20,101 nt of DNA from an uncultured bacterium (GCA_964573245.1 CAZNJA010000022.1:1-20101); one strand, 5' to 3'. Counted from the stretch's first letter, positions 7,148-18,116 are shown. Notes: generated by a model not told the origin, from the sequence alone. Numbers and translations are program-made.

Positions 7148-8023
7148 TTAATATCCAGTAAAACTTTCCGTTTTTATTTTGTCCGCCGTAACAGATAATT
7201 TATCTTTAAGAATCTCCACCAAACCTTCAACCATTGTGGGGGGTCCGCAAATATAAAAAACCCTTTCTTTGAAATCAGGAATTTCCCCCGTTATCATATC
7301 GTCATTTATATGACCTGTCCTTCCTTCCCATTTTTCAGAAGCATTATCCAACGTATAGATTACGCGTATATTTTTGTTGATTTTCTGCATTTCGGTAAAA
7401 TCATCCCTAAATGCGATATCTTCTTCTGTTCTATTTCCATAAAGTAAAATTATGTCAGCCGGTAATTTCTTATCTGTTGCAAATTTACATATACTTCTTA
7501 TAGGAGTTATGCCTATACCACCGGATATAAATGCTATTTTGGGATATTCTCCTTCGAAAGTTAACCCCGTTAGAGATAAATCTCTAAACGGGGTGAATTT
7601 GCCGAGTGGCATCCTCAACTTTGCCCAGTCTCCGGCTTTTAACTTATCTAAAGCTTTTGAATAGTCGCTTTCCGTTATTCTTTTGGTAAATTCAAGATAA
7701 CCCATTTCCGTAGGTGAATTAGAAAAAGAGAAATGTTTTGTCTTTTCTTCGCCGTTAATTTTTATAGTCACAAAAAAGAACTGTCCGGGTTTAAAATCTG
7801 CATTTTCTTTTGTCTTAAACCCCGTTAGAGATAATCCCGACTTTATGTCGGGATGTAACTTATTTGCAAAGCTTTCTGCCTTGCTTTTAGATTTTACACT
7901 TTTATTGGGAGCTAATCTTCCTGTTAAATCAGAATCTCTAAACGGGGTAAAACGGAAACTTTTTACGTCATGAGTCCTTTGGATAACATCCAACACTTCC
8001 GTTTCAAAAGTAATCGTATCCAT
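7148..8023 (-). CDS. FNR-like FAD/NAD(P)-binding oxidoreductase with two in-frame palindromic insertions
   Basis: FKPGQF, HFSFSNSP, GGIGITP, YGNR, YICGPPTM; start taken as ATG at 8023, just past the upstream gene's stop. Confidence 0.88.
   Translation of the reverse strand: MDTITFETEVLDVIQRTHDVKSFRFTPFRDSDLTGRLAPNKSVKSKSKAESFANKLHPDIKSGLSLTGFKTKENADFKPGQFFFVTIKINGEEKTKHFSFSNSPTEMGYLEFTKRITESDYSKALDKLKAGDWAKLRMPLGKFTPFRDLSLTGLTFEGEYPKIAFISGGIGITPIRSICKFATDKKLPADIILLYGNRTEEDIAFRDDFTEMQKINKNIRVIYTLDNASEKWEGRTGHINDDMITGEIPDFKERVFYICGPPTMVEGLVEILKDKLSVTADKIKTESFTGY
7564..7594. repeat. Short palindromic element ACCCCGTTAGAGAT-AA-ATCTCTAAACGGGGT, in-frame coding insertion
   Basis: Imperfect hairpin; same ends as 7819-7948; adds 11 aa. 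Confidence 0.85.
7819..7948. mobile_element. MITE-like element with terminal inverted repeats, in-frame coding insertion
   Basis: ACCCCGTTAGAGAT (7819-7832) ... ATCTCTAAACGGGGT (7934-7948); TAAA on both sides of the CCCCG..CGGGG core; adds 44 aa. Confidence 0.8.
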
Positions 8024-8027
8024 ATGT

Positions 8028-8897
8028 CTACACATCCACTCCCAAGAATATCCTAACAAGAAAACCTATGCCAAATGATAGAGCTGCAATTCCCAGACTG
8101 ACCATTGCCATCTCGGCAAACCGCGACCTGAACGGAATATCCTGTGCAATCGATACATAAAAAGTGAACATAGCTATTATCAAAACCGCATTAAAAAGAG
8201 TCAGGCCCAGACAAAAATAGAAATTAGAGAAGAGTAAATACGGAAATATCAGAAAGAACACCGTCAGGATATAAGCCGTTCCCGTATAAACAGATGCCTT
8301 AATCGGATTTTTTGCGCCTGCTTCTGTTTTTGTAGAAAGATATTCTGACGCCGCCATTGATAAAGATGCAGCAATACCCGTAATCAAACCCATTGCCGCA
8401 ATCAATCGCGTGTTCTGAAGAGCAAGTGTAAATCCTGCCAAAGCACCTGTAAGCTCTACGAGAGCATCATTCAAACCGAGAACCATTGAGCCGACATATT
8501 TAAGCCGCTCTTCATCTATTAAATCTATAAGCTCTCTTTCGTGTTTATCCTCATCTTCTTCAATTGCTTTTGCTTCGGGGGCAAACTCGTAAAAATCCGC
8601 ATAAGAAACCTGCGCTTTCTGTTCGCCTTTTTCCATGAGTTTCATGCCAAAGGTTATACCGAATATTTTCGCAATAAATAAATATTTCCATAAATTCAGC
8701 TTGCTTGGTTTTATATCTTTCTTTGTATAACCTTTCCAGACATGATAATGCTTCAGCTCATCCTCAGAGATGTTCTTCAATACTTCCCTATTCTTAGGAT
8801 TTTTTGCTGATTGTGAAAGCTTTCTGTAAATAAAATGCTCTGTTATCTCATTTCTCTGAGCAGTTAAAATCCTATTTTTTATTTTTTTAGGTAACAT
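8028..8897 (-). CDS. Rubrerythrin-domain plus VIT1/CCC1 iron transporter (MbfA-like)
   Basis: N-terminal ExxH pairs (EDELKH, EDEDKH); C-terminal LGLNDALVE...SMAASEYLS VIT1 motif and TM helices. Confidence 0.9.
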   Translation of the reverse strand: MLPKKIKNRILTAQRNEITEHFIYRKLSQSAKNPKNREVLKNISEDELKHYHVWKGYTKKDIKPSKLNLWKYLFIAKIFGITFGMKLMEKGEQKAQVSYADFYEFAPEAKAIEEDEDKHERELIDLIDEERLKYVGSMVLGLNDALVELTGALAGFTLALQNTRLIAAMGLITGIAASLSMAASEYLSTKTEAGAKNPIKASVYTGTAYILTVFFLIFPYLLFSNFYFCLGLTLFNAVLIIAMFTFYVSIAQDIPFRSRFAEMAMVSLGIAALSFGIGFLVRIFLGVDV

Positions 8898-9008
8898 TAT
8901 TGAATATCGTTATTCGGTTAGGGTTACGATGCCCGTTTCGTCATTGGGTTACGTCTATCGTCTTTTAAACGTAACCTTTACCGTCAAACGATACGGGCTT
9001 CATTGCCG

Positions 9009-9323
9009 TTACCCATTACCCTTTTTCAGCTTCTCAATCATTTCTTCTACTTCTTTTGCTCCTTTAGTATAGAATCCTTCTTCATCAGGAGCAAGTTGTT
9101 TTAAAAGCGTTAAGAACTCTCCCGCGTGAACACGTTCCTCATCGGCTATATCCACCAACACATCCTTAGCCAACTTATCGTCTGTTGATTCTGCAAGCTG
9201 TGTATAAAGCTGGACCGCCTCATATTCCGCAGCAATTAAAAACCTTACCGCGCGAATCAACTCCTCTTTTGTAAGCTTGCGGTCATTCTTTAATCCCGAA
9301 AACGATGTCCCGAAATCCGGCAT
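9009..9323 (-). CDS. Short ferritin-like protein (EncFtn/Flp-type)
   Basis: EELIRAVR...AEYEAVQLY...IADEERVHAGEF; GGAGG RBS. Confidence 0.8.
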   Translation of the reverse strand: MPDFGTSFSGLKNDRKLTKEELIRAVRFLIAAEYEAVQLYTQLAESTDDKLAKDVLVDIADEERVHAGEFLTLLKQLAPDEEGFYTKGAKEVEEMIEKLKKGNG

Positions 9324-9351
9324 AACACACCTCCTTTTTTAGGTTAGCGAC

Positions 9352-9448
9352 GGACGATGGACGTCCGCTCATTTCATTCGCTTGGACGAAGGATGTAATT
9401 TTCTTCTATTTTTTCGTCCCTCGTCTCTCATCCTTCATCCCTCATTTT
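9352..9448. repeat. Inverted degenerate heptamer arrays (GGAYGWW / TCRTCCY)
   Basis: GGACGAT, GGACG.., GGACGAA, GGATGTA versus TCGTCCC TCGTCTC TCATCCT TCATCCC. Confidence 0.7.
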
Positions 9449-10201
9449 TCACTTAAAAATCTCTCCCGTTTCTTTATACCAAAACACCAAATCAAGATGG
9501 TCAATAGGTATATTAGCACTTACTGAAAATTCTTTCATTTTGCTTTCAATTTCCATATATTTTTTCTTTGATATTGAAGATGGGATTTCATCTATTACAC
9601 CGAATTCTTTCAAATTTTTCAGTATGTGTCGGTCAAGAATTGCGAGTTCCTCACCAAACCCTATGTTCCTTAAAAAATGGCTCGCTTCCTTATATCCCAT
9701 TCCTTTTACCCCGTTAAAAGTAAGTCTCGACTTTACCTGCCTCGCCTTTGTCTCATCAAGGCAGGTGTTGGGACTGCCATCCGACGTTACGTCGGAGGGA
9801 CTTCTAACGAGGCGAGTACCATTAACCAGCCACTCCCTCGCTTCATGCGCATTTTTAAACTGTTTAAGCTTAGATTTGATATTCAATTTCCCACCTGACA
9901 TAAACTTCTCTCTCGCCAATATTATGTACTGTGCTTTTTTGTTTTTAAACCGCGCCCTGTTCAGCTCTTTAACAATATTTTTCCAGTTGCCTTCAAACAT
10001 TAAATTTTTCTTATTTAACTCCTCTACACAACACCAGCATGATTGAGCTTTGGATTGTGGGGTGAGTATGCAGAATGCCAGTTCCGAGAATATGTCTTTT
10101 TCTGTCCCTTCTTGAAAAAGCTTCTTGAATTCAGCCAGACGGGCTTCTATTTTTTTGTGGATTTTATGGTAGACTTTTTTTATATCCTTTGTAGAAGACA
10201 T
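9449..10201 (-). CDS. ogg: 8-oxoguanine DNA glycosylase/AP lyase (Ogg2/Thermotoga-type) with ~36-aa insertion
   Basis: FSELAFCILTPQS, KGMGYKEASHFLRNIG, AILDRHIL, LDLVFWY..TG..K motifs. Confidence 0.9.
   Translation of the reverse strand: MSSTKDIKKVYHKIHKKIEARLAEFKKLFQEGTEKDIFSELAFCILTPQSKAQSCWCCVEELNKKNLMFEGNWKNIVKELNRARFKNKKAQYIILAREKFMSGGKLNIKSKLKQFKNAHEAREWLVNGTRLVRSPSDVTSDGSPNTCLDETKARQVKSRLTFNGVKGMGYKEASHFLRNIGFGEELAILDRHILKNLKEFGVIDEIPSSISKKKYMEIESKMKEFSVSANIPIDHLDLVFWYKETGEIFK
9708..9813. mobile_element. Composite palindromic element inserted in frame in ogg
   Basis: Ends ACCCCGTTAAAAGT / ACTTCTAACGAGGC (11 of 14 complementary); nested hairpins at 9735-9766 and 9780-9796. Confidence 0.75.
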
Positions 10202-10251
10202 ACCTCATTATTATACAAAACTTCCATTATTTCTTATAATAAGCACTATGA

Positions 10252-12432
<2,181 letters not shown>

Positions 12433-12446
12433 AAGTTTAAGAAACG

Positions 12447-12533
12447 GATACTAGATGCTGGATACTTGATACTTGTAAAAAACATAAAAAAGAGAATCTG
12501 TTAACTAGCATCAAGAATCTAGTATCTAGAATC
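12447..12533. repeat. Inverted degenerate heptamer arrays (GATRCTD x4 / WAGHATC x4)
   Basis: GATACTA GATGCTG GATACTT GATACTT ... TAGCATC AAGAATC TAGTATC TAGAATC. Confidence 0.8.
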
Positions 12534-12559
12534 AATACTCTTGTATAAAAAAACTTATT

Positions 12560-13315
12560 ATGAGCAATAGGAAACAGAAGATGGTGGAGAAAACAGAACT
12601 TAAAAGAGTTGCAAAAGAATGGATTCAGTCTATATTAATTGCTTTTATCGTTGCTATGTTCATCCGCACTTTTTTCATTCAGCCGTACCGTATCCCTTCC
12701 GGCTCGATGCTGCCTACATTAAAAGTAGGTGACCATCCTTTAGTCAATAAACTCATTTATAAAATAAGAGAACCCCAGCGCGGAAACGTAATTGTGTTTT
12801 TATACCCTGTTGTAGAATACGGGTGCACAGAGTGTATGTATAAATATAAATTTTTAGGATTATTTAATAGATACGAATATAGATATACTTATGAATATCG
12901 GGAAGATTACGATAAAGTTCAATACGGGAATATCCCTTTTGATAGATTACCGGACGACTGGATTTGCCCCGCATGCGGAGCGCCTAAGAGCAGTTTCAGG
13001 AAACTGCCGAGGAAGCCGTTTATAAAAAGATTAATCGGCTTACCCGGAGAAACCGTTAAAATAAGCGATGGGGAAATTTATATAAATGGAAAACCGTTGG
13101 AAGAGCCATTTAGCATAACGCAAAGACACTATATCTCCGAAAAAAACTTTGCAACTGAGGAAATAAAAATTCCTCTTGATAGTTATTTCGTTCTCGGTGA
13201 TAATACGGGCAATTCAAAAGATAGCCGTTATTGGGGTTTTGTTCCAAAAGAAAATTTAATAGGTAAGGCAGAGGTCATTTATTGGCCCCCGCACAGAATA
13301 AGAAAAATAAGATGA
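12560..13315 (+). CDS. lepB: Signal peptidase I with inserted rubredoxin-like domain
   Basis: One TM helix, IPSGSMLPTL..GD, FIKRLIGLPGE, GDNTGNSKDSRYWG; internal CTEC...LPDDWICPACGAPKSSF. Confidence 0.92.
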   Translation: MSNRKQKMVEKTELKRVAKEWIQSILIAFIVAMFIRTFFIQPYRIPSGSMLPTLKVGDHPLVNKLIYKIREPQRGNVIVFLYPVVEYGCTECMYKYKFLGLFNRYEYRYTYEYREDYDKVQYGNIPFDRLPDDWICPACGAPKSSFRKLPRKPFIKRLIGLPGETVKISDGEIYINGKPLEEPFSITQRHYISEKNFATEEIKIPLDSYFVLGDNTGNSKDSRYWGFVPKENLIGKAEVIYWPPHRIRKIR

Positions 13316-13357
13316 ATTGCAAAAAATATATATAGAAAAAATTAGGAGGAACAAGCA

Positions 13358-14017
13358 ATGGAAGTAGCAAGAGTAGCTGATACATATTTCAAAACAAGAC
13401 ATTTAGTATTTAAAAGACGCTGCGAGTTAGCTATAGCAGACAAAATAGTCTTGGCATTTTTAATGGCAGGATTTACGGGAATTATGGCTCAGACAAGAGT
13501 ATATCTTCCCTTTACTCCCGTTCCGATTACGGGACAAACGTTTGCGGTTTTGATGGCGGGTGTTCTGCTCGGTAAAAATTGGGGCGGAATAAGCCAGGCA
13601 ATATATGTGCTCTTGGGCGCGGCGGGAATACCGTGGTTCGCCGGAGCGCAAGGCGGATATGCCTACCTCGCAGGTCCAACAGGAGGATATTTGATAGGAT
13701 TTATACTCGCCGCCCTTTTTGTAGGACATTTCACTGATAAATATGTAAGGATGAGAAGTTTTAAATCGATGTTCTTCCTAATGCTTTTTGCAAATTTCGT
13801 TTTCATTTACGGTTTAGGATTATTTCAACTGGGAATTTGGTTTAAAGTCGTAAAAGGCACTTTCCCTACTTTTAAACAATTGCTTTTAGCAGGGTTCCTT
13901 CCCTTCGTTGCAGGCGCCATAATCAAAACCATACTGGCTGCAACAATAGCTGACGGAATTACACCCAAAAAAGCATTCAACAATGAAGCAGACACTGAAG
14001 TGAGAACAGTTTCATGA
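13358..14017 (+). CDS. bioY: Biotin transporter (ECF S-component)
   Basis: PVPITGQT, G..P.FAG, GPTGGYLIGF. Confidence 0.93.
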   Translation: MEVARVADTYFKTRHLVFKRRCELAIADKIVLAFLMAGFTGIMAQTRVYLPFTPVPITGQTFAVLMAGVLLGKNWGGISQAIYVLLGAAGIPWFAGAQGGYAYLAGPTGGYLIGFILAALFVGHFTDKYVRMRSFKSMFFLMLFANFVFIYGLGLFQLGIWFKVVKGTFPTFKQLLLAGFLPFVAGAIIKTILAATIADGITPKKAFNNEADTEVRTVS

Positions 14018-15441
14018 AAATCCAGAATACTCTCACAAAAGAAAAAGAAGTTTTCGAACCCATTAATAAACAGCAGGTCGGTTTTTACACCTGCGGGCCG
14101 ACTGTTTACAACTACGCGCACATCGGCAATTTGAGGACTTACATCTTCGAAGATATTTTAAAAAGAGTTCTCTTATACAATAACTACAATGTAAATCATG
14201 TGATGAATATTACCGACGTGGGGCATCTCACTTCCGACGAAGACGAAGGCGAAGACAAGATGGATTTGGCGGTCAAACGCGAAGAAAAAACCCCCGAACA
14301 AATAGCCGATTTTTACACAAAAGCATTCAAAGAAGACCTTTCTAATCTAAATATCCTGGAGCCGAATATCTGGTGCAAAGCAACGGAACATGTCGCGGAT
14401 ATGATTAAATTAATCCAAAGAATAGAGAAAAACGGTTATTCTTATATCGGCAAAAACGGGAATGTATATTTTGACACGGGCAAATTCGCCGATTACGGAA
14501 AGTTTGCGGGGCTTGATTTGGAAAACCTTCAAGCAGGAGCCCGAACCGAAATAGACGAAGAAAAAAGACACCCGAGAGATTTTGTCTTATGGTTTTCTAT
14601 CAAGGGTTCGAAATTCAAAGGACATATCTTGAAATGGAACTCTCCGTGGGGAGAAGGATGGCCCGGCTGGCATATAGAATGCTCGGCAATGTCAATGAAA
14701 TACCTCGGAGAACAATTCGATATACACTGCGGAGGAGTCGACCATATTTCTATTCATCATACAAATGAAGTTGCTCAAGCAGAAGCGGCAACAGGTAAGA
14801 AATGGGTCAACTACTGGCTTCACGGCGAATTTCTCATTATGAAAGAAGGGAAAATGGCCAAGTCCAAAGAAGAATTTATCACATTAAAAACCCTAATCGA
14901 CAAAAATTACGACCCGTTGGCTTACAGATATATGTGTTTCAATACGCATTACAGAAAAAAGCTGAATTTTGACTGGGAAGGATTGGACAGCGCGCAAAAA
15001 ACCTTGTTGACTTTGAGAGAAACCGTAAAAATTATAAAAGAACCCGCCACAGAAGATTCGGCGGGCAGGGAAACAAAAAAAGATAAGGTTGAAACTTATA
15101 TTGAAAGATTCCGCGAAGCGGTAAACAACGATTTAAACATGCCGAAGGCTTTAGAGGTTATATGGACACTCTTAAGGAATGAAAAAGATATAAGCAATCA
15201 AGATAAATATAAGTTATTGCTCGAATTCGATAAAGTGATGGGATTAGACTTGGACAAAATCGAAACGACCGCAAAAATACCCAAAGAAATAAACAATTTG
15301 ATACAGAAACGCGAAGAATACAGAAAGCAAAAAAATTGGGCAAAGGCGGACGAAATGCGGGACAGACTACTTGAAAAAGGAATTGTTTTGCAGGATACTG
15401 CTGAAGGGGTAATCTGGAAAAGAAGACGAAAATCCGAATAA
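14014..15441 (+). CDS. cysS: Cysteine--tRNA ligase
   Basis: CGPTVYNYAHIGNLR, PGWHIECSAMS, DIHCGG.D...HH.NE, KMAKS. Confidence 0.97.
   Translation: MKIQNTLTKEKEVFEPINKQQVGFYTCGPTVYNYAHIGNLRTYIFEDILKRVLLYNNYNVNHVMNITDVGHLTSDEDEGEDKMDLAVKREEKTPEQIADFYTKAFKEDLSNLNILEPNIWCKATEHVADMIKLIQRIEKNGYSYIGKNGNVYFDTGKFADYGKFAGLDLENLQAGARTEIDEEKRHPRDFVLWFSIKGSKFKGHILKWNSPWGEGWPGWHIECSAMSMKYLGEQFDIHCGGVDHISIHHTNEVAQAEAATGKKWVNYWLHGEFLIMKEGKMAKSKEEFITLKTLIDKNYDPLAYRYMCFNTHYRKKLNFDWEGLDSAQKTLLTLRETVKIIKEPATEDSAGRETKKDKVETYIERFREAVNNDLNMPKALEVIWTLLRNEKDISNQDKYKLLLEFDKVMGLDLDKIETTAKIPKEINNLIQKREEYRKQKNWAKADEMRDRLLEKGIVLQDTAEGVIWKRRRKSE
15043..15069 (+). repeat. 27-bp palindromic element in cysS (PATEDSAGR)
   Basis: CCCGCC-N11-GGCGGG-CAGG, flanked by GAA on both sides. 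Confidence 0.75.
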
Positions 15442-15467
15442 GTTATTCTTAAGAGGAGGATAAACAC

Positions 15468-15743
15468 ATGAACGGACAAGGCACAGGCAAAGGCGCTGCG
15501 TTCTTTATCGCAATAGTAATTCTTGGCGCTATTTTAGGAGGCGTTTTTGGCGAAATCCTGGGGTTAATAGTCACCGGCGGAGTGTTGAACAAAATACTAG
15601 TGACGGGAATATCGCTTTCTTTAAGCCCTGCCACGACGCTGGACCTGGCAGTGTTAAGTTTTACTTTCGGGATAGGAATGAAACTGAATCTGCTTTCTGT
15701 GTTTGGAATCGTTGGCGCCATATGGCTCTATTATAAGATATAA
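15468..15743 (+). CDS. DUF4321-like small membrane protein
   Basis: GAILGG..GE.LG...LDL.VLSFTFG...KLNLLSVFG pattern; GAGGA RBS. Confidence 0.75.
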   Translation: MNGQGTGKGAAFFIAIVILGAILGGVFGEILGLIVTGGVLNKILVTGISLSLSPATTLDLAVLSFTFGIGMKLNLLSVFGIVGAIWLYYKI

Positions 15744-15822
15744 CAAAGGTGTAAAATCTTTCCGGTCAAAGAAGACCAACAAAGTTACCAAACAATTACA
15801 AAATAACTTTTTTATGGTTTAA

Positions 15823-15861
15823 CCCGCCAGCAATTGCTGGCGAGGTCTCGCCGTAGGCGGA
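15823..15861. repeat. Intergenic GC-rich palindromic element
   Basis: CCCGCCAGCAATTGCTGGCGAGGTCTCGCCGTAGGCGGA; perfect palindrome CGCCAGCAATTGCTGGCG. Confidence 0.6.
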
Positions 15862-15942
15862 TATAATTCTGTTTTGCCAAAGCGACAAGAAAAGTACGAA
15901 TCCATAGAGCTTCGATATTGTTATTAAAGGTTGAAAAAAAAC

Positions 15943-16770
15943 ATGAAACAAAACGAAATAATAAATAAAAAAGAAATTGCTCCGGGCATTAAATTATTTG
16001 ATATCTATGCTCCCGACATCGCAAAAAAATGCCTGGCGGGTAATTTCGTCATATTGATGGTCTCCGAATACGGGGAGAGAGTACCTCTTACAATAAATAA
16101 TTGGGACAGGGAAAAAGGCACTATAAGAATTATCGTTCAGGAAATAGGCAGAACAACAAAAGAACTCGGCAAGATGAATGTCGGCGATATAATATCCAAC
16201 CTAATGGGCCCGCTCGGCCATCCGTCCGAAATAGATAAATTCGGCAAAGTAGTATGTATCGGCGGCGGGGTGGGAACCGCCGTAATGTATCCGATTGCAA
16301 AAGCGCTAAAAGAAAAAGGAAACGAAGTCATAACAATCATCGGCGCAAAAACGAAAGAACTTTTAATCCTTGAAAATGAACTAAAAAAGATAAGTGCATC
16401 AGTTCACATAACCACCGACGACGGCAGTTACGGAAAGAAAGGATTTGTAACGGATAAGTTGAAAGAAATTTTGTCATCGGGGCAACAAATTAACAGAGTC
16501 ATTGCAATAGGCCCGCTTATCATGATGAAGATAATAAGTGAAATAACAAAACAAAAAGCGATACCTACAATAGTCAGCCTGAACCCGATAATGATAGACG
16601 GCACGGGTATGTGCGGCGGTTGTCGTGTGAGGGTGGGAAACGAAACAAAATTTGCCTGTGTTGACGGGCCCGAATTTGACGGCCACAAAGTTGACTTTGA
16701 CGAATTGATACATAGAAACAACAGATTCTTGGAAGAAGAAAGGCATAGTTGTAAACTTTTAGAAAAATGA
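15943..16770 (+). CDS. nfnA: NfnA/SudB-type FAD/NAD-binding [2Fe-2S] subunit
   Basis: GERVPLT, GPLG, GGGVG, TDDGSYG, DGTGMCGGCR...CVDGPEFDG; ATG at 15943 (TTG at 15931 also possible). Confidence 0.85.
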   Translation: MKQNEIINKKEIAPGIKLFDIYAPDIAKKCLAGNFVILMVSEYGERVPLTINNWDREKGTIRIIVQEIGRTTKELGKMNVGDIISNLMGPLGHPSEIDKFGKVVCIGGGVGTAVMYPIAKALKEKGNEVITIIGAKTKELLILENELKKISASVHITTDDGSYGKKGFVTDKLKEILSSGQQINRVIAIGPLIMMKIISEITKQKAIPTIVSLNPIMIDGTGMCGGCRVRVGNETKFACVDGPEFDGHKVDFDELIHRNNRFLEEERHSCKLLEK

Positions 16771-18116
16771 CAAAAAGACCTGTAAAAGAAAGAATTAAAA
16801 ACTTTGAGGAAGTTGCTTCGGGCTACAGCAGACAGGAAGCAATAGCCGAAGCAAAGAGATGCCTGCAGTGCAAAAAACCTCTTTGCGTTAACGGATGCCC
16901 TGTCCAGATAAACATTCCAAAATTCATAAAAGAAATTTCCGAGGGCAAATTTGACGAAGCGATAAAAACACTGAAAGAAGCCAATAACCTGCCGGGAATA
17001 TGCGGAAGAGTATGCCCGCAGGAAATCCAATGCGAAGCGCTCTGCGTATTAGGCAAAAAAGGTAAACCCATTGATATCGGAACGCTCGAAAGATTCGCTT
17101 CGGATGAGGGACAATCCCCCCTTGTTTCCTCCGGAAACACGCAGGGGGGACAGGTGGCGGTTGTCGGCTCGGGGCCCGCGGGTTTAACCTGCGCAGGCGA
17201 ACTTGCAAAAATGGGATATGACGTAACAATATTCGAAAGTTTGCACAAAGCAGGCGGGGTCCTGCGATACGGCATACCGGAATTTCGTATGCCCCGCGAT
17301 ATTCTTGACAGTGAAATTCAATATGTCAAAGATTTGGGAGTTAAAATTAGGTGCGATGTATTAATAGGAAAAACTTTTACGATAGACGAACTTTTTAAAG
17401 CAGAATATAAAGCAATATTCATCGCAAGCGGCGCAGGCGCTCCGCAGTTTTTGAATATAGAAGGGGAAAATGCAAACGGCGTATATTCGGCAAACGAATT
17501 CCTAACCCGCGCAAACTTAATGAAAGCGCACGACGAAGAGTATCACACCCCCATAAAAGTCGGCAAAAAAGTCGGAGTAATAGGCGGAGGAAATGTTGCT
17601 ATGGATTCAGCGCGCGTAGCAGTTAGGTTAGGCGTGGAAGTATATCTAATCTACCGCCGCACCGAAAAAGAAATGCCCGCAAGAATAGAAGAAAGAGAAA
17701 ACGCAAAAGAAGAGGGAGTGAAATTCAAAATCCTCACACAACCCGTAAAAATAAAAACGGATAATGAAGGATGGATAAAAGAATTAGAGTGTCTACAGAT
17801 GCAGCTCGGCAAACCTGACGAATCCGGCAGAAGAAGACCAATACCGGTGAAAAATTCCGATTTTTCCATTCCTCTGGACACACTGATTATAGCAATAGGG
17901 CAAAAGCCAAATCCTCTCATAGCATCTTATACTAAAGGCCTTAAAACACGCGAAGACGGGACCATAATCGCGGACGGAAAAACAGGCGCAACATCCATCA
18001 AAGGCGTCTTCGCAGGTGGTGATATCGCAACCGGCGCCGCAACAGTCATAGAAGCAATGGGCGCGGGACGCAGAGCAGCGAAGGCAATGGATGAGTACAT
18101 CCGGAATAAGAATTAA
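16767..18116 (+). CDS. nfnB: NfnB/SudA-type (GltD-like) flavo-iron-sulfur subunit
   Basis: RCLQC....C..GCP, CGRVCPQE.QC...C, GSGPAG, GGGNVAMD, GGDI.TG; overlaps the nfnA stop (ATGA). Confidence 0.85.
   Translation: MTKRPVKERIKNFEEVASGYSRQEAIAEAKRCLQCKKPLCVNGCPVQINIPKFIKEISEGKFDEAIKTLKEANNLPGICGRVCPQEIQCEALCVLGKKGKPIDIGTLERFASDEGQSPLVSSGNTQGGQVAVVGSGPAGLTCAGELAKMGYDVTIFESLHKAGGVLRYGIPEFRMPRDILDSEIQYVKDLGVKIRCDVLIGKTFTIDELFKAEYKAIFIASGAGAPQFLNIEGENANGVYSANEFLTRANLMKAHDEEYHTPIKVGKKVGVIGGGNVAMDSARVAVRLGVEVYLIYRRTEKEMPARIEERENAKEEGVKFKILTQPVKIKTDNEGWIKELECLQMQLGKPDESGRRRPIPVKNSDFSIPLDTLIIAIGQKPNPLIASYTKGLKTREDGTIIADGKTGATSIKGVFAGGDIATGAATVIEAMGAGRRAAKAMDEYIRNKN

Follow-up and report, generated by a model that had tools for sequence, protein, structure and literature searches.

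Contig C22 of the metagenome bin G000 was analysed as a single stretch of DNA of 20,101 nucleotides, referred to here as the window (GCA_964573245.1, CAZNJA010000022.1:1-20101). The bin comprises 1.46 Mb in 110 contigs with 38% G+C and is 93% complete, and the named close relatives of its proteins carry the labels Omnitrophica or plain "bacterium". Between positions 7148 and 18116 the window codes for an FNR-like flavoprotein, a VIT/rubrerythrin protein, Ogg, LigA, a signal peptidase, BioY, CysS and NfnAB. An earlier examination of this DNA alone, the sequence-only reading, had proposed that GC-rich hairpins inside the genes for the FNR-like protein, Ogg, LigA and CysS, and probably NfnB, are tiny mobile elements inserted in frame, and had estimated the sizes of six inserts. 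Five of these sizes are confirmed by the gaps seen in orthologues, namely 33 and 132 nt in the FNR-like gene, 108 nt in ogg, and 57 and 27 nt in ligA; the cysS insert is confirmed in part, and nfnB holds a hypervariable repeat site, not an insertion. The inserts are very probably real in-frame insertions of mobile repeats, and those in the FNR-like gene and ogg belong to a family with terminal inverted repeats (TIRs) that has 59 copies in the genome.

The hairpins are all present where they had been placed. When single-stranded DNA folding of eight stretches was compared with 200 shuffles per stretch, each folded better than its shuffles (z -2.5 to -5.5); none of the 200 shuffles folded as well in seven stretches, and 4 of 200 did so for the ligA 57-nt stretch.

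Insertions in the FNR-like, ogg and ligA genes

The inserts were compared with orthologues from other genomes. G001, G002 and G003 share the genus of G000, and the phylum of G000 is represented by nine species in the genome library searched.

7561..7597, minus strand: 33-nt insert in the FNR-like gene, made up of a mini palindrome of 29 nt (7565-7593) and a 4-bp duplication that reads TTCA/TTAA on the coding strand
7816..7951, minus strand: 132-nt insert in the FNR-like gene, consisting of a 125-nt-class element, itself 128 nt long (7820-7947), flanked by TAAA duplications (plus strand)
9705..9816, minus strand: 108-nt insert in ogg, formed by a TIR element of 104 nt (9709-9812; AGT subtype) with two inner hairpins, one of them holding a nested unit
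9735..9766, strand not applicable: hairpin unit ACCTGCCT..AGGCAGGT, nested within the ogg element in the loop of its first inner hairpin
9780..9796, strand not applicable: hairpin TCCGACGTTACGTCGGA, the second inner hairpin of the ogg element
10663..10719, plus strand: 57-nt insert (19 residues) in ligA, a CCTGCC..GGCGGG unit with the inner hairpin CGCTTCGC-CC-GCGAAGCG
11575..11605, plus strand: 27-nt insert in the TTTLAGKPE region of ligA, a decayed CCCGCC..GGCGGG hairpin whose boundary is ambiguous by the 4-nt CCCG

The smaller insert of the FNR-like gene (fold z = -4.8) translates as TPFRDLSLTGL (11 aa), and its empty site, AATTCA/CTTT in G001 and G002, corresponds to TTCA-element-TTAA in G000. 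The larger insert translates into 44 aa with no stop codon and contains a subterminal hairpin, ATCCCGAC..GTCGGGAT, followed by TGTAA; here the empty site CGC/TTTA/AAAC of the same two relatives corresponds to TTTA-element-TTTA. Empty sites in close relatives, which had been suggested as a check on the mobility of the hairpins, are present, and both pairs of empty and filled sites show 4 bp of target duplicated. G001 and G002 (82-84% identical) lack both inserts, as do 24 of the 25 other homologues aligned. The exception is P0002, a protein from another assembly that is 88% identical and has both inserts at identical sites, with 6 of 44 residues changed. A length of 233-256 aa is found in 118 of the 120 best homologues, the longer ones being the window protein (291 aa) and P0002 (292 aa). 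In the AlphaFold model of the FNR-like protein, residues 29-75 and 140-154 are coil with a predicted local distance difference test (pLDDT) score below 50, and the remaining fold is confident; the same is observed for residues 131-161 of Ogg. Mapped on these two modelled host proteins, the inserts are low-confidence loops in otherwise confident models.

Between conserved anchors, Ogg has 38 residues against 2 in G004, a gain of 108 nt, and the segment is also missing from eight more distant orthologues. At the same site, with exactly the same flanks, the element of G001 and G002 is 71 nt long and of the GAT subtype, where G000 has its 104-nt AGT-subtype element. Either the interior was exchanged after a single insertion or the site was hit twice; exchange is favoured because the decayed left flank is shared. 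The 104-nt element, which has a sister copy at C3:11003, consists of a 62-nt double-hairpin element whose first hairpin loop accommodates an additional 42-nt unit, and 62-nt TIR elements without the nested unit are found as well; the claim that elements sit inside one another thus stands. The 23-nt left part of the nested unit recurs in ligA at 10662 (96% identity) and at C3:11029. The unit ACCTGCCTCGCCTT(T/C)GTCTCATC is on the plus strand at both places, while ogg is a minus-strand and ligA a plus-strand gene, and so is read on either strand, as the sequence-only reading had said of units that recur between genes. CCGACGTTACGTCG, of the family of the second inner hairpin, ranks among the top 14-mers of the genome.

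The 57-nt insert of ligA is missing in all seven relatives aligned (G001, G002, G004, G009 and three distant LigA), and a sister copy of the unit is found at C5:18262, in intergenic DNA. The 27-nt insert (9 residues) is common to G001, which has CCCGCCTGCC..GCGGGCAGG at that site, and is missing in G004 and four others; the G002 fragment stops before the site. A locus search with LigA returned distant relatives only.

Repeat families across the genome and their frame bias

The ends of the main family are CCCCGTTAGA..TCTAACGGGG, with terminal inverted repeats of 10-16 bp, CCCCGTTAGA(R)AT..ATYTCTAACGGGG. The commonest 14-mer in the genome is ACCCCGTTAGAGAT, with 41 occurrences. Half-sites with at most one error number 179 in G000 against 39-71 in five Markov shuffles, and end pairs no more than 175 nt apart occur 53 times in left-to-right order and once in reversed order. 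Counted as properly nested end pairs, allowing no more than one error within the 10-nt core, the genome holds 59 TIR elements (62 pairs unfiltered). Their 4-nt flanks are identical in 18 of the 59, and another 14 have flanks with a single mismatch; when flanks were permuted among the 62 unfiltered pairs, identical ones averaged 4.6 and never exceeded 12 over 2000 trials. The duplicated targets are TTTA, TAAA, TGAA, TTCA and TCAA. With its terminal inverted repeats and target-site duplication, the main family is an element like the miniature transposable elements with inverted repeats known as MITEs. Short intragenic copies (29-104 nt) have one or two GC-rich hairpins between the ends, and stem sequences vary between copies while the pairing is kept. 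The genus has four genomes, which contain 29, 13, 28 and 15 exact end pairs, and the remaining five of the phylum contain 0; such pairs are also present in 22 further genomes from other families (401 genomes searched), and a control pattern gave 0 everywhere. The 11 unpaired exact half-sites gave no hint of a larger element at contig ends.

Let L denote an element's length measured between, and including, the outermost bases of its inverted-repeat ends; since 4 bp of target are duplicated, one insertion adds L+4 bases. Taking as intragenic those copies lying at least 20 codons inside a gene called by a crude longest-open-reading-frame method, L equals 2 mod 3, so that the frame is kept, in 22 of 23 intragenic copies; among the 36 others this holds for 18 (Fisher p = 1.8e-4). 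The enrichment of coding copies for lengths in multiples of three, another of the suggested checks, is therefore observed. All 19 spanning open reading frames (ORFs) tested by Pfam are recognised genes, 17 of them for enzymes or other cellular proteins and two for DUF1559 pilin-like proteins; the host genes include those for TruB, IleRS, PanC, NadA, UvrC, Mfd, PurH, ProB, LipB and GpsA. The TIR ends leave two of three frames open on either strand (PVR..SNG, PLE..LTG), and the third carries TAG/TAA. Among 25 intragenic pairs, frame a is used by 17 (two of which are cross-pairs at one nested locus), frame b by 7 and a mixture by 1, and the stop frame by none. Several genes terminate at the third-frame stop codon of a TIR element.

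We also note two placements near the start of host proteins. The 104-nt elements at C21:16682-16785 (nadA) and C3:37437-37540 (a membrane protein) are inserted at ATGAA directly after the start codon. In G000 as well as in G001 (G001:C11:57788-57890), the nadA element has retained an internal GTAAGGAG..ATG, and for this reason the real nadA start may lie inside the element. Five of the 62 TIR pairs in G000 abut the prepilin motif G/F(T or S)..E (C4:23505, C13:1166, C17:24155, C53:8880, C80:2931). The preferred target TTTA sits within GG-TTT-AC there and the GGGG end of the element rebuilds the Gly codon, which places the insert in the cleaved prepilin leader.

Families of smaller hairpins, CCGAC..GTCGG and CCYGCC..GGCRGG, occur alone and nested in TIR elements, and the 57-nt unit of ligA, with its sister copy at C5:18262, makes a third that is also found alone. 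The loose pattern CCGAY..RTCGG has 71 genome matches, many of them weak (59 alone, 12 inside TIR elements), and CCYGCC..GGCRGG has 59 over three overlapping patterns. The proposal of several repeat families is thereby upheld genome-wide: members are found within genes, between genes and within one another. The remaining hairpins of the window are as follows.

10252..10330, strand not applicable: intergenic 79-nt palindrome TGTCATTGCGAG..CTCGCAATGACA between ogg and ligA
15043..15069, plus strand: CCCGCCACAGAAGATTCGGCGGGCAGG, a 27-nt hairpin within a variable cysS linker and a member of the small hairpin families
17115..17150, plus strand: hairpin TCCCCCCT..AGGGGGGA in the hypervariable NfnB linker, with no net insertion

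The hairpin claimed for cysS is present (fold z = -2.8); the insertion of 27 nt is borne out only in part, as CysS of G000 is just 5 aa (15 nt) longer than that of the four close relatives G001-G004, and G009 is equally long. The probable insertion in nfnB is contradicted by the alignment, in which the linker of G000 is shorter than in all five relatives and a different short repeat is found in every species. In this linker, before GxGxxG (window 16767-18116, orthologues L047-L051), the tandem heptamer or octamer differs per species, for instance AGTCAAA x4 in G004 and GGACGAG x4 in G002. One copy related to the nfnB hairpin is found at C1:27355. The 79-nt palindrome has 12-bp perfect arms (fold z -4.7) and is found at four genome loci, all intergenic. 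Downstream of ligA, window positions 12447-12526 contain a 25-nt inverted repeat (80% pairing) of GATACT-like units, and similar text is found at C14:22826.

The nuclease-bearing form and the movement of the repeats

It had been suggested to look for a nuclease gene flanked by the same ends. Such a gene exists in other genomes and in metagenomes, and none was found in G000. A metagenome scan for CCCCGTTAGAGATAG yielded 80 loci and 74 end pairs, of which 17 measure 276-286 nt; each copy of this size holds an ORF on one strand. All four ORFs tested, of 86-93 aa, match PF01541 GIY-YIG (E 2e-16 to 6e-18). Deduplication of 19 full-length copies left 16 distinct ones (metagenome, G003 and G018), in 14 of which an 85-86-aa ORF is intact with conserved Tyr, Tyr, YxG, Arg, His and Glu. 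The ORF ends in ..KRFLSLTG: its last six codons, FLSLTG, are the terminal repeat, and the stop codon is supplied by the flank. The best solved relative of the nuclease is the UPF0213 protein BH0048 (1zg2, E = 4e-4), and NCBIfam gave a weak group I intron endonuclease match only. Intact or nearly intact full-length copies are present in G003, of the same genus, and in the distant G018, and a decayed variant in G273; the four end pairs 151-300 nt apart in other genomes are all in G018.

The full-length form has an internal inverted repeat, AGGAAACGCTT..AAGCGTTTCCGTAAAT, at whose place the 122-131-nt copies of G000 have a short hairpin and then CGTAA. The full-length profile matches six G000 copies of the 125-nt class over model positions 187-279 (with a start at 186 or 188 in two), with E values from 7e-10 to 9e-4. 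Because the match runs from the internal repeat to the far end, these copies are taken as internal-deletion derivatives, and the TIR family as a whole probably derives from the 276-286-bp GIY-YIG element. A further subfamily of ~100 nt has the same ends and a conserved interior, GATTTAAAAAACG..TTATTAAATC (C7:38200, C95:2450, C47:7021, C34:3699, C70:5238; also in G001-G003); it is found only between genes and matches neither the full-length profile nor Rfam.

A full-length GIY-YIG element of G003 (L231:1501-1780, on G003:C13) lies exactly at the G/F cleavage motif of a pseudopilin gene. The fusion is in frame, MFYTY..KRFLSLTG/FTFLEISLV, and open over 245 aa; the neighbouring pilin-like genes have ~125-nt copies at the same G/F motif (L231:807-933 and 2248-2375). 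Given this position at the cleavage site, prepilin peptidase could release both the nuclease and the mature pilin. By reading out past its own end and into the host gene, the element may also take advantage of host expression.

Five distant small GIY-YIG genes are found in G000 itself, in C27, C14, C1 (tRNA-Gln), C23 (next to tRNA-Ser) and at C1:26111-26344. The gene at C27:11428-11823 is bracketed by inverted repeats of 21 nt, TTTTAAAAGATGCGGGATTTA / TGAATCCCGCATCTTTGAAAA, in which 19 of 21 positions pair; its ORF terminates as ..GEGAG in GGTGCGGGGTGAA, and the end resembles ..AACGGGGTGAA. At C14:12800-13600 the gene stands beside tRNA-Val(GAC) and is flanked by CCGACGT..GTCGG hairpins; in partial tRNA copies there, a CTCCGACGTAACGTCGGAG hairpin replaces the anticodon arm, and runs of N make the assembly unsure. 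At C1:9940-10450 the gene interrupts tRNA-Gln(CTG) in its anticodon loop, and since the insertion carries a 38-nt duplicate of the tRNA 5' half, an intact tRNA-Gln is restored downstream. The five genes fit with the presence of several nuclease-repeat pairs in G000 and do not prove it.

The explanation that we prefer, to which we assign a probability of roughly 0.7 as a whole, begins with small non-autonomous mobile repeats that would have landed inside genes as copies. Those inserts would have survived that added a whole number of codons, had no stop in the frame used and came to lie in a loop. The interior of the elements is modular, with one or two hairpins into whose loops further small hairpin repeats, found singly in ligA and cysS, have entered. 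Deletion between the internal inverted repeats of the 276-286-bp element would have given the 125-nt copies, and further loss those of 29-104 nt. The nuclease, supplied in trans, would cut ends and targets; that it moves the repeats is a serious possibility at somewhat under even odds. The small hairpin families may have been moved likewise, by paralogous small GIY-YIG nucleases, of which G000 has five. We hold still more tentatively that the 276-286-bp unit is a self-contained transposable element with an 86-aa GIY-YIG nuclease as its only protein, cutting at TNNA with a 4-nt stagger, spreading across phyla and leaving gene-less copies that become protein loops. If true, this would place it among the smallest autonomous mobile elements.

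Several points weigh against this explanation. A duplication of 4 bp is the usual mark of DDE transposases, and we know of no strand-transfer activity for a lone 86-aa hydrolytic nuclease. Despite their many short copies, G000, G001 and G002 have no nuclease gene with these ends, and a nuclease copy is present in just 3 of the 22 other end-bearing genomes (24 loci examined), one with an internal TGA. The small hairpin families show no definable duplication or ends. In uvrC, one of the intragenic copies (C42) has L = 1 mod 3, the gene calls of the census are crude, and the inserts are known from assembled contigs. The published relatives, the Ssn nucleases, are described as cutters of single-stranded DNA, with no demonstration that they mobilise their repeats (PMC11893778).

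Several of these points would suit ordinary MITEs of an unassembled DDE insertion sequence (IS), with the GIY-YIG gene as cargo or a secondary invader. Short terminal inverted repeats with 4-bp duplications are typical of DDE elements, a metagenome-assembled genome of 110 contigs and 93% completeness may be missing repeats, and most end-bearing genomes have no nuclease copy with those ends. Against such an origin, PF01609, PF00665, PF13701, PF01548 and PF07282 have no match in G000 or in the 10-contig G001, and an rve gene of G002 is without such ends. End pairs 180-3000 nt apart are not in excess in G000 (3 against ~9 in reversed order), and the 276-286-nt GIY-YIG form is the only larger class within 2 kb of the 80 metagenome loci. 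The nuclease ORF reaches its end within the terminal repeat, and the hairpin kept by the short copies comes from the coding sequence of this ORF. We therefore regard a DDE origin as unlikely. Far less probable is that the hairpins are immobile and formed where they now lie, through slippage or selection, as loops specific to the lineage or as regulatory structures of the nucleic acid. The sites in nfnB and cysS, in hypervariable linkers with a different short repeat in every species, look like this, and the intergenic copies may have a structural RNA role; an Rfam search of the window and 17 element loci matched no element, a neighbouring tRNA being the sole match. An immobile origin does not account for the recurrence of the same ends at 59 positions across unrelated genes and spacers, together with target duplications and clean empty sites, for ends in 21 genera of many families, or for the different interiors at one ogg site in two species. 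That the inserts are assembly artefacts of a fragmented bin is scarcely credible: the FNR-like 33-nt and 132-nt and the ligA 57-nt inserts are indeed specific to G000 among the genomes searched and were seen in assembled sequence, yet P0002 repeats both FNR-like inserts in another assembly, the ogg site is filled in G001 and G002, the ligA 27-nt insert recurs in G001, and all inserts keep the frame.

Other candidates for a mobiliser were rejected. DDE, IS110 and TnpB families are not found in G000, and a search of this genome for six transposase Pfam families returned nothing beyond one degenerate Y1 relative, in agreement with the earlier statement that no transposase is at hand. That relative is a RAYT-like gene with one PF01797 match (32.7 bits) and an NCBIfam RAYT score of 33 bits against a cut-off of 80; by reading, its HUH motif is not recognisable, its flanks have no repeats, and an orthologue is found only in G003. 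The gene (L004:1429-2739, C12 of G000) codes for 436 aa with a degenerate N-terminal domain, and its C-terminal part resembles a neighbouring 202-aa ORF. A reading as integron attC sites was dropped because the core motif order is reversed.

Relation to known systems

In-frame palindromic repeats are already known from Rickettsia palindromic elements (RPEs) and intragenic repetitive extragenic palindromic (REP) sequences, and GIY-YIG genes flanked by dispersed hairpin repeats from the Ssn/SRM system. A build of TIRs with target duplication, a 280-bp form whose ORF enters its end, a deletion series down to 29 nt and nested modules were not found in print. The literature search returned neither in-frame palindromic repeats in Omnitrophota-like bacteria nor a GIY-YIG gene bounded by terminal inverted repeats with target duplication, and the supplements of PMC11893778 and PMC3733652 may list related repeats. 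The inserts bear on the origin of new surface loops in essential enzymes (LigA, IleRS, UvrC, Mfd); they also inflate gene lengths and can mislead annotation of uncultured bacterial genomes. The mover of such repeats becomes a question testable with one small protein and a 30-base substrate.

As far as the consulted portions of these publications describe them, four systems resemble the repeats of G000. MITEs of bacterial insertion sequences (PMC10969869) share the TIRs, target duplication, small size, lack of genes, occurrence in many copies and the presence of a longer form that has the same ends; in contrast, the longer form here encodes a GIY-YIG nuclease and not a known transposase, and is itself just ~280 bp. 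Ssn nucleases with their NTS/SRM repeats (Chenal et al. 2025, PMC11893778), whose authors note an IS-like layout and name Rickettsia and Wolbachia among the repeat-rich hosts, likewise combine a small single-domain GIY-YIG gene with dispersed repeat copies on both sides. This likeness comes from layout and domain: in the present element the flanks are two arms of one TIR, one of which the ORF enters, and the 276-286-bp unit has a 4-bp duplication and gene-less derivatives that insert in frame.

GTAG- and CGTC-tagged intragenic REPs (Di Nocera, De Gregorio and Rocco 2013, PMC3733652), known from several phyla as single or grouped hairpins, are also small GC-rich hairpins in genes for DNA repair and RNA enzymes, among them those of a DNA ligase and tRNA synthetases and truB, and the CCGACGTWACGTCGG hairpin of G000 often has CGTC beside its stem. 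REPs are described there with neither inverted-repeat bounds nor duplication, whereas the main family has both, and no RAYT gene flanked by the repeats was found. A likeness in way of working, not in sequence membership in RPE-1 to RPE-10, is seen with the RPEs (Ogata et al. 2000, per PMC10969869), several palindromic families of about 150 nt that lie in frame in many unrelated housekeeping genes. Both are palindromic insertions into functional genes in genomes where no transposase was found; those of G000 differ in their size of 29-128 nt, defined TIRs, 4-bp duplication, nested interior, gene-bearing form and different phylum. For the old puzzle of selfish DNA within protein-coding genes, familiar from Rickettsia, they provide a second, richer case with empty sites, an insertion rule and a candidate enzyme.

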